DNA from: Candidatus Fraserbacteria bacterium
GTDB taxonomy: Bacteria; Bipolaricaulota; Bipolaricaulia; RBG-16-55-9; DRXL01
Assembly (NCBI GenBank): GCA_947085185.1
Contig: CAMTVK010000021.1
Span: 28,698 to 92,697 of the forward strand
Direction of reading: 5' to 3'
Length of the DNA stretch: 64,000 bases
Positions 13,297 through 39,037 of this stretch are shown here, piece by piece (within the stretch, counting starts at the first letter, position 1; the number at the start of each line of letters is the position of its first letter). The translations under genes and the position numbers were made by a program. Under the pieces are notes generated by a model that was not told the DNA's origin, ran no database searches, and saw only the letters and a program-made list of their open reading frames with translations.

Positions 13297-13305
13297 CTCT
13301 GTGTC

Positions 13306-13394
13306 ACAGGGGAGCTCGGGGAACCGGGCTGAGAGGGTCTCTACTCTGAGACCGACCCTTGGAACCTGATCCGGGTAATGCCGGCGTAGGGAAC
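13306..13394 (+). promoter_or_regulatory. TPP riboswitch (THI box)
   Basis: AGGGGAGC...GCTGAGAG...GACCCTTGGAACCTGATCCGGGTAATGCCGGCGTAGGGAA consensus, upstream of thiB. Confidence 0.96.
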
Positions 13395-13447
13395 CTTCAG
13401 CGTCCTCCCGAGATCTCTCCGAGAAACTCTCGAAGGAGGGATCTATC

Positions 13448-34219: not shown

Positions 34220-34902
34220 ACCAGCACCCCACGCTCGGGATATGGGCGTTCTTTCGATCCTTGAAAAGTGAATAGAGTGCATCACATCGCGCAAACTCAG
34301 TACGGGCGGATGGTGGATGCCTTGGCAGCTGGAGGCGATGAAGGGCGTGGCAGACTGCGATAAGCCACGGGGAGCCGTCGAGCAGGCGTTGATCCGTGGA
34401 TGCCCGAATGGGGGAAACCCACCGCACGGAAGGTGCGGTATCTCTCCCCCAATTCATAAGGGAGAGAGGCGAACCGGGGGAAGTGAAGCATCTCAGTACC
34501 CCGAGGAAAAGAAATCAATAGACACAAAGCTCTCTTCTCTGCGCTCGACCTCGAGCACAGGAAAGATGGCTTTGGAGATTCCGTCAGTAGCGGCGAGCGA
34601 ACGCGGAACAGCCTAAACCCTCGTAGCGGAATAGACTGCCTTCGTTGTTACGAGGGGGTTGCAGGCCGGCCTTCCCACGGGAGGCAGACCGTGGCAGAGG
34701 TTACAAAGATTGGCTCTAGCCGAACAGCTAGTAAAGCCACTGGAAAGAGCGACCAGAGAGGGTGACAGTCCCGTAGGCGAAAGGGTCAGTCCCTCTGGGG
34801 CCGTGCCTAAGTAGCGTCGTACCCGTGTTACGGCGTGAAGCTGGGAGGACCACCTTCCAAGGCTCAATACTACCAGCTGACCGATAGTGGACCAGTACCG
34901 CA

Positions 34903-34939
<37 letters not shown>

Positions 34940-36394
34940 CAGAACCTGAAACCATCCGCTCACAGACAGTCGGAGGGTCCCGCCGACCCTTTGCCTTGGG
35001 CATCGCAAGATGCCCTATGGCAGAGCCGGCGGCCTGACGGCATGCCTTTTGCAGTATGATCCTGCGAGCTACCGTGCGTGGCCAGGCTAAGTCTCGTTGG
35101 TGGGACGCAGCCGCAGCGAAAGCGAGTCCGAACAGGGCGACCAGTCACGTGCGGTAGGCACGAAGCCGAGCGATCTACCCATGGCCAGGCTGAAGCGTGG
35201 GTAACACCACGTGGAGGGCCGAACCCGTGAACGTGGAATAGTTCTGGGATGAGTTGTGGGTAGCGGTGAAAAGCCAGACGGGCCTCGGTGATAGCTTGTT
35301 CTCCTCGAAATAGTTTTGGGACTAGCCTCGGCAGTTAAGCCGTGGGGGTAGAGCACTGGATGGATGCGGGGCAACCCAATTCCAACCAAACTCCGAATAC
35401 CATGGCGCACCTGCCGGGAGTCAGACGATAGGGGATAACCTTTATCGTCGAGAGGGAAACGGCCCAGATCGTCGGCTAAGGCCCCAAAGACCGAGCTAAG
35501 TCAGGAAGGATGTGCCCCTGCTTAGACAGCTGGGAGGTTGGCTTAGAAGCAGCCATCCTTTAAAGAGTGCGTAATAGCTCACCAGTCGAGCGGGAGTGCG
35601 CCCAAGATTCAGCGGGAGTTAAGCTCGGCGCCGAAGCCACGGGAGAGTCTCCGTCTCCGACGGAGGCTACGGTAGAGGAGCATTCCGCCTTAGGCCGAAG
35701 TCGTGCCGGAAGGCACGGCGGACGAAGCGGAAGAGAGAATGCAGGAATGAGTAGCGCGAGGTGAGCGAGAAACTCACCCACCGTAAGTCTCAGGGTTCCT
35801 GGGGAAGGCTCATCCACCCAGGGTTAGGCGGCCCTAAGCTCAACCCGCAAGGGGTAGGCGATGGACAGCCGGTTAATATTCCGGCCCCTCTCTGTGGCGA
35901 TGACCAAAGGGGGGACGCATCAGGTCGCTTCAGCGGGCGGACGGATGTGCCCGTGTCAAAGACGAGGCATCCGGGCGTAGGCAAATCCGCGCCCGGGTCA
36001 AGTCGAGTCGAGACGGAGGTCCTACGGGACCGAAGGAAGAGCGATCAGGTGCCGAGAAAATCCTCTAGGGAGCCACAGAGAGCCCGTACCGCAATCCGAC
36101 ACAGGTAGACGGGCAGAGTATGCTCAGGTGGGCGAGAGAACCATGGTCAAGGAACTCGGCAAAATGCTCCCGTACGTTCGCAAGAAGGGAGGCCCCGCGT
36201 AGGGCAGCGATGTCCGAGGGGGCCGCAGAGAGCAGGCTGGGGAGACTGTTTATCAAAAACACAGCACCCTGCTAACTCGAAAGAGGACGTATAGGGTGTG
36301 AGACCTGGCCACTGCTGGAAGGTCAAGGGGAGGGGTTCACGCCCCAAACTGAAGCCCCAGCGAAGGCCGGCGGTAACTATAACTGTCCTAAGGT

Positions 36395-36665
36395 TCAAAG
36401 CGAGCCTTAGTAAAACCCGGCTATATGCTGGAAACTCCGGTGAGTATCCCACGCTACCTTCTCTACATGGCGAAGGTGACAATGCGATGGGTGCGGACAA
36501 CCAGCAGGAAAGGTTGCCGCTTGAACGGCAACTTCCTCAGAGACTGTACGCCGGGCTCCGCGAAGAGCGGATGAAGATACAGTCCGAGCTGCACGGCGAC
36601 GTGCAGAGTCTGGTTCGCGCCAGACCGCCTTGCCAAAAGCAAGGTCAACCAAAGTAACAGATCTG
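36395..36665 (+). mobile_element. group I intron at 23S position ~1931 (271 nt, no ORF)
   Basis: Splits CCTAAGGT^AGCGAAA; P1 with U.G pair (CTAAGGT/GCCTTAG); ATGCTGG/CCAGCAG P4, GACTG/CAGTC P7; terminal G. Confidence 0.93.
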
Positions 36666-36685
36666 AGCGAAATTCCTTGTCGGGT

Positions 36686-37022
36686 AAGTTCAGTTGCCCG
36701 TACCGGCTTATAACGGTGAAGCCCTCACTCGTTGCGGTCGCAAGGAGCCGTGCTCAAGAGTGGGTAACACCGTGGGAAGTCGGACTCAAGAGAGTCTTGA
36801 CCCCGTAACGACTGAGGTCGCAAGACCGAGATAGCAGCCCTGTCTCGACAGAGACAAATTTAAGCTGCTATAATACGCCGGCACTGCTTTGAGTTTGCTT
36901 GGCCAGTGAGGTGAGGTCGAGATCATCGAGCTGATCTTCACCATTAACACTGGCAAGCGGAAATATCCAAAAGAAGCAGTGAAGATATAGTCTACGCCTC
37001 TGGAGAACAGAGGGAGAACGTG
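36686..37022 (+). mobile_element. group I intron at 23S position ~1951 (337 nt, homing endonuclease remnant)
   Basis: Splits GTCGGGT^AAGTTCCGAC; P1 CGGGT/GCCCG; ACGGTG/CACCGT P4, CCCGTAACGACT and ATAGTC P7; terminal G. Confidence 0.92.
36910..36990 (+). pseudogene. C-terminal remnant of a homing endonuclease gene inside the L1951 intron
   Basis: GAGGTGAG RBS-like motif followed by VEIIELIFTINTGKRKYPKEAVKI*. Confidence 0.55.
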
Positions 37023-37333
37023 AAGTTCCGACGCGCATGAATGGTATAACTATCCCAGCGCTGTCTTGACCATGGGCTCGGTGAAATTGAAGCACCGGTG
37101 AAAACGCCGGTGACTCGCGGCAGGACGGAAAGACCCCGTGGAGCTTTACTGGAACTTGGCATTGGGTCTCGACGTTCGTTGTGTAGGATAGGTGGGAGCC
37201 GGAGAAGTCTCCGCGCTAGCGGGGATGGAGGCGTCCTTGAAATACCACCCTTCGTTCGTTGCGACTCTAACCCACGGCTGTACAGCAGTCGGGGGACCGT
37301 GCTAGGTGGACAGTTTAACTGGGGCGGTTGCCT

Positions 37334-38235
37334 CAACAGTGGGGCAACGCAAATCCGGCTATATGCTGGGAAGTCCGTCCCCTCACAGGGGTGCAGTGTC
37401 CGGCGCTACTAGTCTGAGACTAGTGAAAACGCGCGCGGCGCGGACAATCAGCAGGGAAGTCTTGGGAAGACCCCTCAACGACTGCACGCCGGACGGCACA
37501 GGTGTGCCGATGATACAGTCTGAACTTCCCGGCGACGGGAAGCCGTCTTAGGACGGGGTTCGGTCTAAAGAGGTGAGCTGCGTGCGGTCTCGACAGATCG
37601 AGATGTATAAGCAGAAGCTCGCCCTCACAGATATCCAACGAGAGATACTCGTTGGCCTGCTGCTTGGCGATGCCTGCCTTGAAACACAGAATCGGGGCAG
37701 GACCTATAGGCTCAAGATCGAGCACAGCGTTGCTCAAGCCCAGTATGTGCAGCACCTCTATGAAGTTTTTCGGGAGTGGGTGCTGGGTGGACCGCAGGTC
37801 AAGAGCCAACGGATCGCGGGCAAGATCTATCACAAGCTGTGGTTCAATACTGTGAGCCATAGCGCCTTCCGATTCTATGCTCAGCAGTTCTATCGGAACG
37901 GGGTGAAAGTCGTGCCTAAGCTGATCCATCGGTTTCTGACTGCACGGGGCTTGGCATACTGGTTCATGGACGATGGCTCGATCAAGTCGAAGGAGTCCAA
38001 AGCAGTGCTCTTCAACACCCAGGGTTTTGGCAACCACGATATAGCCAGGCTCATTGGGGTGTTGCAAGGGAAGTTTGGGCTGGAGGCCAAGCGCAGGTCT
38101 CAGCCGGAAGGGCAGCAGATCTATCTCTCTGGGAGATCCTATGAGCGTTTCTGTACGCTCGTCGAACCCTATGTGATCCCCCAGATGCGCTACAAGCTGC
38201 CTGAAAAAAGAAGCAGACCGAACTTAACGGAATTG
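37334..38235 (+). mobile_element. group I intron at 23S position ~2262 (902 nt) carrying a homing endonuclease gene
   Basis: Splits GGGGCGGTTGCCT^CCTAAAGAGTAACGG; P1 GTTGCCT/GGGCAAC; core ATGCTGG/TCAGCAG, GACTG/CAGTC; terminal G. Confidence 0.93.
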
Positions 38236-38247
38236 CCTAAAGAGTAA
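37582..38247 (+). CDS. double-motif LAGLIDADG homing endonuclease
   Basis: ILVGLLLGDACL and GLAYWFMDDGS motifs; AGAGGTG RBS; located in the intron 3' region. Confidence 0.93.
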   Translation: MRSRQIEMYKQKLALTDIQREILVGLLLGDACLETQNRGRTYRLKIEHSVAQAQYVQHLYEVFREWVLGGPQVKSQRIAGKIYHKLWFNTVSHSAFRFYAQQFYRNGVKVVPKLIHRFLTARGLAYWFMDDGSIKSKESKAVLFNTQGFGNHDIARLIGVLQGKFGLEAKRRSQPEGQQIYLSGRSYERFCTLVEPYVIPQMRYKLPEKRSRPNLTELPKE

Positions 38248-38399
38248 CGGAGGCGCGCAAAGGTCGGCTCAGCCGGGTTGGCGATCCGGCGGGGAGTGCA
38301 TGGGCATAAGCCGGCTTGACTGTGACCCCGACAGGGGGAACAGGTGCGAAAGCAGGCCCAAGTGACCCGGTGGCTCTGTGTGGAAGGGCCATCGATCAT

Positions 38400-38430
<31 letters not shown>

Positions 38431-38917
38431 AGTACCGCCCGAGAGTACACATCGACGGCGGTGTTCGGCACCTCGATGTCGGCTCAACTCATCCTGGGGC
38501 TGAAGCAGGTCCCAAGGGTCCGTCTGTTCGCCGGTTAAAGAGTTACGTGAGCTGGGTTCAGACCGTCGCAAGACAGGTCGGTCCATATCCGCCGCGAGCG
38601 CAAGAGGCTTGAGGGGCACTCTCCCTAGTACGAGAGGACCGGGAGGGCTGGACCTCTGGTGTACCAGCTGTTCTGCCAAGAGCACCGCTGGGTAGCTATG
38701 TCCGGACGGGATAAGCGCTGAAGGCATCTAAGCGCGAAGCCCACCCCAAGATGAGGCCTCTGAGAGCCCTGGGAGAACACCAGGTTGATAGGCCGCAGGT
38801 GTACGCGCAGCAATGCGTTCAGCCGAGCGGTCCTAATCGCTCCGTCGTTTGCGCGACGCACTCTATTCACTTTTGAGGGATCGAGGCGCCTGGGGGGCGT
38901 GGCGGTCCCTAAGAGAT

Positions 38918-39037
38918 TTCAGGTGGCCCAATAGCGGCGGGGAAACACCCGTTCCCATCCCGAACACGGCCGTTAAGCCCGCCTGCGCCGATGGTAGTGG
39001 GCTCGCGAGGGCCCGCAAGAGTAGGGCGCCGCCTGGA
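38918..39037 (+). rRNA. rrf: 5S rRNA
   Basis: ACACCCGTTCCCATCCCGAACACGG..GTTAAG...GCCGATGGTAG...GAGTAGG; terminal stem. Confidence 0.96.

Follow-up and report, generated by a model that had tools for sequence, protein, structure and literature searches.

How can a bacterium go on making ribosomes when its only gene for 23S ribosomal RNA (rRNA) is interrupted three times, and what has become of the elements that interrupt it? The question is raised by a 64,000-nucleotide (nt) stretch of contig CAMTVK010000021.1 from Candidatus Fraserbacteria bacterium (phylum Bipolaricaulota); this whole stretch is referred to here as the window, and coordinates are window positions unless stated otherwise. 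The answer that we favor, with a probability of roughly 85%, is that the sole 23S gene of this bacterium carries three splicing group I introns, at the sites following positions 1931, 1951 and 2262 of the Escherichia coli large-subunit (LSU) rRNA (L1931, L1951 and L2262), of which the third would still be mobile and the first two would be derivatives whose endonuclease genes were deleted. We observe directly where the inserts lie and end, ribozyme cores backed by covariation, the deletions, an intact endonuclease gene and the single copy of the rRNA gene. A preliminary description of the locus had proposed three group I introns of 271, 337 and 902 nt at approximately these sites, the first two separated by a 20-nt exon at 36666-36685, and an alignment to the E. 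coli gene bears out the lengths, the sites and the exon coordinates to the base.

The interrupted gene is identified by an Rfam search, which returns it as the single 23S gene of the whole assembly (1.72 Mb in 32 contigs, 96.8% complete, with an estimated contamination of 0.09%). Because it is the sole 23S copy in so complete an assembly, the cell depends on it. Insertion sites were taken from a MAFFT alignment of the window gene to the annotated E. coli 23S gene (L079:650-3553), and the introns were scored against the Rfam model Intron_gpI (RF00028), whose gathering score is 50 bits. Paired regions of the introns are numbered P1 to P9 below. The gene, its three inserts and the short exon between the first two are as follows.

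34289-38856, plus strand: 23S rRNA gene, bacterial LSU (Rfam RF02541, 2349 bits, model positions 1-2925)
36395-36665, plus strand: intron 1, after E. coli 1931 (L1931); 271 nt; 55.9 bits with Intron_gpI, above the gathering score; without an endonuclease gene
36666-36685, plus strand: 20-nt exon between introns 1 and 2, E. coli 1932-1951; its last five bases are part of intron 2 P1
36686-37022, plus strand: intron 2, after E. coli 1951 (L1951); 337 nt; extra helices of the P7.1 and P7.2 type between P7 and P3
37334-38235, plus strand: intron 3, after E. coli 2262 (L2262), in helix 81 and adjoining the P-loop; 902 nt; 61.6 bits with Intron_gpI

Introns 2 and 3 are separated by an exon of 311 nt. 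Once the inserts are removed, the gene aligns with the LSU model and with E. coli without large gaps across domains IV and V (E. coli 1900-2300), and the joined exon sequence is exactly that of intron-less relatives, for instance the genus-mate G009.

The ends of the inserts carry the signature of group I introns. In all three, as the preliminary description had also read them, the 5' exon ends in a U that pairs with a G of the guide sequence in P1, and the last base of the intron is a G. Intron 1 pairs exon bases 36388-36394 (CUAAGGU) with the guide at 36404-36410 (GCCUUAG) and ends in G at 36665; intron 2 pairs exon bases 36681-36685 (CGGGU) with the guide at 36696-36700 (GCCCG) and ends in G at 37022; intron 3 pairs exon bases 37327-37333 (GUUGCCU) with the guide at 37342-37348 (GGGCAAC) and ends in G at 38235. 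Repeated letters at the second and third sites permit alternative cuts, and at each of them only one choice yields both the U and the G. In the family alignments described next, the U.G pair at the splice site is kept in every sequence (25 of 25 for L2262, 21 of 21 for L1951).

The cores of introns 2 and 3 could be examined against families of homologues. Those at L2262 were gathered by way of the intron 3 protein, which led to 53 loci in bacterial genome records, 46 of them with an intron at the same site and both junctions. An RNAalifold consensus of 25 of these sequences predicts 69 pairs from P1 to P9, with compensatory changes in 42. Intron 3, whose ribozyme core occupies 37334-37566, forms 61 of the 69; the remainder comprises one mismatch and seven pairs of a P2 hairpin that is found in most family members and is absent from intron 3 and its two nearest relatives alike. 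Homologues at L1951 were reached from the protein that a relative encodes in its full-length intron, giving 58 loci, 49 with an L1951 intron. Here the consensus of 21 sequences spans the 5' part only, from P1 to the 3' strand of P3, and compensatory changes occur in 18 of its 33 predicted pairs, all 33 of which intron 2 forms; for P7, P8 and P9 of this intron, the pairing was taken from the Rfam alignment and from visual inspection. The covariation tests being those of the L2262 and L1951 families, intron 1 owes its identification to its Rfam score and to its relatives.

Relatives also reveal what the two smaller introns have lost. The preliminary description had recognized three stages of the homing cycle in the one gene, namely an intron without an open reading frame (ORF), one with a remnant and one with an intact endonuclease. 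The remnant in intron 2 and the intact gene in intron 3 stand, and "ORF-less" proves slightly too strong for intron 1, which keeps ten codons. Intron 1 shares 83% identity over 270 nt with the 700-nt L1931 intron of the genus-mate G003, from which it differs by one 412-nt gap in P6, a short hairpin in intron 1 that holds the endonuclease gene in the relatives' copies. The ORF of the G003 intron matches LAGLIDADG_1 (4.5e-21), and intron 1 keeps the start codon and first ten codons (MGADNQQERL) of such a gene because these overlap the ribozyme core, specifically P5 and P4. The counterpart of intron 2 is a 705-nt L1951 intron in G016, a member of the same family, with 91.6% identity over 335 nt and one gap of 368 nt. 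The G016 intron carries in P8 a 146-amino-acid (aa) LAGLIDADG_1 gene (Pfam match 3.7e-25), and the gap takes out the start and 123 codons of this gene, leaving the following fragment in the window.

36919-36990, plus strand: LAGLIDADG_1 remnant in intron 2, the last 23 codons and a TAG stop, with no start codon; its 3' end overlaps strands of P8 and P7

By BLASTP, 21 of the 23 residues are identical to residues 124-146 of the G016 protein. Four other ORFs of 43-75 aa, on both strands, overlap intron 2 and were rejected as genes, none having a Pfam match at E <= 1.

Part of the codons retained in intron 2 lies outside the ribozyme core, which marks this intron as the product of a deletion. Intron 1 would likewise be a deletion derivative of a gene-bearing L1931 intron, the direction of change, loss or gain, being less sure than for intron 2. 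The homing-cycle reading, with three endonuclease-intron states in one gene (intron 1 gene-less, intron 2 with a remnant, intron 3 gene-bearing), is nonetheless supported by these alignments, because introns 1 and 2 match gene-bearing relatives of about 700 nt minus 412 and 368 nt and because intron 2 keeps 23 codons of the lost gene. A further thought is that introns 1 and 2 are in decay as ribozymes as well, so that they self-splice inefficiently and rely on host proteins or on a maturase supplied in trans. Both are without a protein of their own, the general Rfam model gives intron 2 a poor score, and some LAGLIDADG proteins double as maturases, as is noted in passages of Tsurumaki et al. 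2024 (PMC11270868). We judge such decay unlikely, however, as intron 2 forms the full set of its family's consensus pairs, intron 1 exceeds the Rfam threshold and gene-less L1931 introns are also present in the genomes G022, G027 and G035; moreover, the sole 23S gene must give working rRNA, so that splicing has to be efficient by some route.

Do RNA molecules exist from which the inserts have been removed? Contigs from four sequencing runs, three of metatranscriptomes and one of DNA, were placed on 35900-38700. RNA contigs from two studies join 37333 to 38236 and so skip exactly the 902 nt of intron 3 (two contigs in run X15, four in X17), and one contig of run X16 joins 36394 to 36666, skipping exactly the 271 nt of intron 1. 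In the DNA run, X4, which belongs to another study, a 1675-nt contig has intron 3 continuous with its exons. The joints are not specific to this organism, because intron-less bacteria in the same communities would give identical ones. In the three metatranscriptome runs, RNA depth is zero or close to it in the bins that fall entirely within the introns; as the contigs derive from mixed communities, this is uninformative for the Bipolaricaulota host. The joints agree with splicing, with which they are compatible, and are no proof of it.

These data bear on a different fate of the inserts. Fragmented 23S rRNAs that arise from excised intervening sequences occur in bacteria, and the three inserts could in the same way be excised without ligation, or be retained, leaving a fragmented or expanded 23S rRNA. 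The RNA joints that would show ligation are indeed not specific to the Bipolaricaulota host, and intervening sequences at other 23S sites are mentioned in parts of Tsurumaki et al. 2024 (PMC11270868). Yet each of the three inserts has a complete group I core, bounded by the U.G pair and the terminal G. The sites also fall in helices 69-71, at the subunit interface, and helix 81, beside the P-loop; in such places the ribosome is unlikely to tolerate either a break or an insert of 271-902 nt. Exact exon-exon joints do exist in RNA contigs, even if they are unassignable to this host, and Haugen et al. 2007 (PMC1995217) list introns at L1931 or L1951 in Thermotoga, Simkania, Synechococcus and Coxiella. 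Excision without ligation, or retention, is for these reasons highly improbable.

Several observations nevertheless weigh against three spliced, once-mobile introns in one gene. Intron 2 falls below the Rfam gathering score (29.3 bits, E = 4.9e-5, and 24.6 bits in a whole-genome search), so that the Infernal check suggested in the preliminary description succeeded for introns 1 and 3 and fell short for intron 2; the low score is explained by elements that the general model penalizes, namely a long P8 loop and a pair of additional hairpins separating P7 from P3. By eye, no convincing P10 pairing between the start of the 3' exon and the guide region was found for introns 1 and 3. The shorter side of each RNA joint measures only 22-26 letters, under the 30 below which the tool raises a flag, and lies in nearly universal rRNA sequence, and no joint across intron 2 is among those listed for the three metatranscriptome runs. 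A gene-less ancestor followed by a later insertion in G003 would yield the same intron 1 alignment. Finally, it is from a metagenome assembly that we know the three introns to share one molecule.

The last point leads to the possibility of a chimera, in which introns from co-existing strains have been stitched together and no single cell has all three. Ribosomal RNA genes are often misassembled in metagenome-assembled genomes (MAGs), and the distribution of introns in the genus gives the idea some substance. The 23S genes of relatives were found with the 311-nt exon as a DNA query and seen as far as about 1.5 kb from it in each direction, which gave the following occupancy in genus-mates.

G003: L1931
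G004 and G005: L1917
G011: L1917 and L2262
G007 (locus L087): L1917 and L1923, with a 6-nt exon (AACGGU) between them, shorter than the 20 nt of the window
G001 and G012: L1923
G013: L2262
G009: no intron

Five 23S sites are thus occupied among the ten genus genomes with data, that of the window included, and intron content varies among the nine others through combinations of L1917, L1923, L1931 and L2262. An intron at L1951 occurs in none of the 13 genus-mates searched and in 4 of 183 other genomes of the phylum, as judged from strong matches on both sides of the gene. The intron 3 contig of the DNA run X4 shows 47 differences and 9 gaps over 1656 nt, and the run also has a loose end of 10 letters that agrees with a relative lacking the L1951 intron. 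Against a chimera, introns 1 and 2 lie just 20 nt apart, less than the usual assembly word, so that the data must contain sequence that runs from intron 1 through the exon into intron 2. The gene is moreover flanked on each side by unique sequence in a contig longer than 64 kb, and the assembly has a single 23S gene and the low contamination given above. One DNA run holds 0.99 of the sampled words of the stretch; it may be the source sample and would hence not be independent. On balance an assembly chimera is quite improbable.

With three introns in a single gene as the preferred reading, the route from transcript to ribosome can be sketched. Here we infer that the introns splice and that the endonuclease is active, from the intact structures and from the cell's dependence on one 23S gene, and we also infer in which direction the changes went. 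The 23S gene would be transcribed together with its introns, and each intron would fold independently. Its guide would pair with the last five to seven exon bases, leaving a U.G wobble at the splice site; free guanosine would attack the 5' splice site, the terminal G of the intron would then take its place, and the exons would be joined. The 20-nt exon is long enough for both events because P1 of intron 2 uses its last five bases and P1 of intron 1 uses none. Splicing would restore helices 69-71 as well as helix 81 beside the P-loop. The endonuclease of intron 3 would cut intron-less 23S genes at 2262, so that the intron is copied into them, and introns 1 and 2, having undergone internal deletion of their endonuclease genes, would persist as immobile ribozymes. 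As the gene is present in a single copy, these two would be removable only precisely, and the ribosome would need their continued splicing.

The gene on which the mobility of intron 3 would depend lies downstream of P9, in a loop that is closed by a 10-base-pair (bp) long-range helix.

37582-38247, plus strand: homing endonuclease gene of the I-SceI family (LAGLIDADG_2); 221 aa from GTG at 37582, or 214 aa from ATG at 37603
37557-37566, plus strand: 5' strand of the long-range helix, GGUUCGGUCU, complementary to 38215-38224 over 10 bp
38215-38224, plus strand: 3' strand of the long-range helix, AGACCGAACU, within the last codons of the gene and 11 nt before the 3' splice site

The protein matches Pfam PF03161 over its entire profile (positions 1-168 of 168; 1.4e-45, 155.7 bits against a cut-off of 25) and the Protein Data Bank structure of I-SceI, 1r7m, over residues 2-203 (E = 1.2e-31), with both motifs and their acidic residues aligned. 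These two motifs occur in one chain, as GLLLGDA (GLILGDA in I-SceI) and YWFMDDGS (YWFMDDGG in I-SceI), and by analogy with I-SceI we take the aligned Asp residues of both to be the catalytic ones. The product is presumably a monomeric two-motif LAGLIDADG endonuclease, with cleavage activity predicted from the protein sequence. The 221-aa form is the existing gene call (P0001) and homologues align from the ATG at 37603, so that either the GTG or the ATG may be the start. Full-length homologues (P0003-P0007) have 212-222 aa and 82-86% identity, and the enzyme family is very large, with 1853 protein clusters at E <= 1e-10. The endonucleases of the two nearest Bipolaricaulota genome loci are 79-84% identical to that of intron 3. 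Partial endonucleases from a Thermodesulfobacteriaceae MAG (L050) and from an organism named Pseudothermotoga sp. (P0019) are 77-79% identical to it, a similarity that hints at recent transfer of the endonuclease between phyla.

Two features of this gene set intron 3 and its family apart. The first is that the frame crosses the 3' splice site: its TAA stop is at 38245-38247, 10-12 nt into the 3' exon, and the stop lies within the exon in 23 of 47 L2262 family members, intron 3 included. It follows that the excised intron would be a messenger RNA without a stop codon, and that only the unspliced precursor rRNA could yield a protein with proper termination. The second is the loop-closing helix, which recruits the last codons of the gene and is kept in homologues despite differing sequences; in RNAduplex calculations over the 47 members, cognate strands have a mean of -21.4 kcal/mol, versus -16.4 for 2162 non-cognate pairs. 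Within the loop, a purine-rich stretch at 37568-37578, before the start, can pair with 38197-38203, the codons of a conserved Tyr-Lys-Leu-Pro motif, and RNAduplex returns the same pairing in the homologues L019, L020, L025 and L026. As modeled, this pairing inside the loop-closing helix may hide a ribosome-binding site in the folded intron. Together, the stop in the exon, the helix formed by the last codons and the pairing of the start region would make a switch between splicing and endonuclease. That L2262 introns tie endonuclease expression to the unspliced precursor through such a built-in switch, and that the genus offers a natural system for following rRNA introns outside the candidate phyla radiation (CPR), is a tentative idea which we regard as rather doubtful.

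Beyond the genus, the introns recur widely. An L2262 intron with a LAGLIDADG_2-type enzyme is present at 46 of the 53 bacterial MAG loci, which represent many phyla and include two from CPR MAGs (L040 and L046). In 15 of the 49 L1951 loci, non-exon sequence stands directly before the 20-nt exon, and this sequence appears, from its position, to be a second intron at L1931. The rarity that the preliminary description had implied for the 20-nt micro-exon does not hold, given that it appears in 15 of 49 loci and that the corresponding exon of G007 has only 6 nt.

The surroundings of the gene offer several further observations. Downstream of the 23S gene is the following.

38919-39037: 5S gene (Rfam)

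This 23S-5S pair is unlinked to 16S, as no 16S gene occurs in the window, 34 kb of which lies upstream, and the sole 16S gene is on contig C5. Domain I of the 23S gene has four further insertions of 32-59 nt (34519-34572, 34622-34680, 34694-34725 and 34980-35025), placed after E. coli 227, 276, 289 and 543, which could reflect either expanded variable helices or artefacts of the alignment. A thiamine pyrophosphate (TPP) riboswitch is at 13298-13406 (Rfam, 64.9 bits). A candidate fourth intron was dismissed for the window, its weak Intron_gpI match (22.9 bits) lying outside, in a transfer-messenger RNA (tmRNA) gene. That gene, on the same contig (locus L004, equal to G000:C21:122743-126031), runs on the minus strand from about 2543 to 1474 and scores 134 bits with the Rfam tmRNA model. 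Its T-loop is split between GGGUUCGAU and UCCCGCC by a 710-nt insert (2202-1493 of L004), which follows a U, ends in a G and includes a LAGLIDADG-like frame; the gene was missed by ARAGORN. For comparison, PMC11915505 reports 883 intron-bearing tmRNA sequences, of which 4.1% hold an endonuclease gene, and found no intron longer than 700 bp.

What does the locus add? A single gene displays three endonuclease-intron states, and for each of them the preceding state is seen in a close relative. If the reading given here is true, a Bipolaricaulota genus with five occupied sites in ten genomes would let the gain, decay and loss of rRNA introns be watched. A phylum outside the CPR joins the bacteria with 23S intron hot spots, and L2262 introns with an I-SceI-type enzyme prove widespread in uncultured bacteria. 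In practical terms, such introns lengthen or break rRNA genes in assemblies and can defeat rRNA-based annotation; they also offer heat-adapted ribozymes and new LAGLIDADG specificities. The general understanding of these elements is unchanged.

Several known systems resemble the one described here in part. The intron 3 enzyme matches I-SceI, encoded by the omega intron of yeast mitochondria, along almost all of its length. The site of I-SceI is L2449, and the sequence that it recognizes is a different one. The site L2262 itself is familiar from organelles: in the portion of PMC13449250 that treats eustigmatophyte mitochondrial rnl, the sites 1931, 1951 and 2262 are the three standard ones, with nine introns that all encode LAGLIDADG proteins. 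Those introns share with intron 3 the site and the type of enzyme and differ in that the host here is bacterial, a comparison made by site only. The preliminary description had taken the 2262 site to be reported mainly from algal chloroplasts; an organellar occurrence is confirmed in mitochondria by that paper, and the implied rarity in bacteria is not supported, given the 46 of 53 MAG loci. A full-text literature search, in which Acetothermia was used and the name Bipolaricaulota itself was not, found no paper on 23S introns in this group, nor any that names L2262 with group I introns or rrl with 2262; the eustigmatophyte paper was reached through LAGLIDADG.

For the other two sites, bacterial precedents are long established. 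Table 1 of Haugen et al. 2007 (PMC1995217) places L1931 introns in Thermotoga and Simkania and an L1951 intron in Coxiella burnetii, in line with what the preliminary description states for Thermotoga and Coxiella. By site and size alone, these introns of 654-700 and 720 nt correspond to the 700- and 705-nt introns of G003 and G016, whereas the window copies are 271- and 337-nt deletion derivatives. The passages of the same paper on Synechococcus sp. C9 describe group I introns at L1917, L1931 and L2593 of a single LSU gene, which by arithmetic from the sites leaves an exon of 14 nt between the first two. That gene resembles ours in its three introns, the occupied L1931 site, a very short exon and LAGLIDADG enzymes, and reading frames that run into the ribozyme core are noted there too. 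It differs in having a single-motif LAGLIDADG gene in all three introns, as opposed to one gene of the two-motif I-SceI type in the window, in its other sites (L1917 and L2593 versus L1951 and L2262) and in belonging to the Cyanobacteria rather than the Bipolaricaulota.

Multiple introns are more extreme still in the CPR. According to the sections of Tsurumaki et al. 2024 (PMC11270868) that bear on 23S genes, inserts occur in 82% of these genes, with up to 16 per gene, and sites include 1917, 1931, 1952 and others around the peptidyl transferase center. Gene-bearing and gene-less copies at the same site are near-identical outside the ORF, and the 23S inserts hold 62 LAGLIDADG_2 ORFs, the usual length of CPR LAGLIDADG_2 proteins being about 210 aa. 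Several introns per 23S gene and a mix of gene-bearing and gene-less copies are thus common to the CPR and the window, whose host is not a CPR bacterium. Three introns in one gene, which the preliminary description had implied to be rare, had accordingly been published in 2007 for Synechococcus sp. C9 and are exceeded in the CPR. Taken together, the window provides a new instance of a well-described phenomenon, from a phylum that is not known for it. Two aspects are the most unusual: the endonuclease frame reaches into the exon before it ends, and its last codons form part of a helix. Both are traits of the L2262 family.

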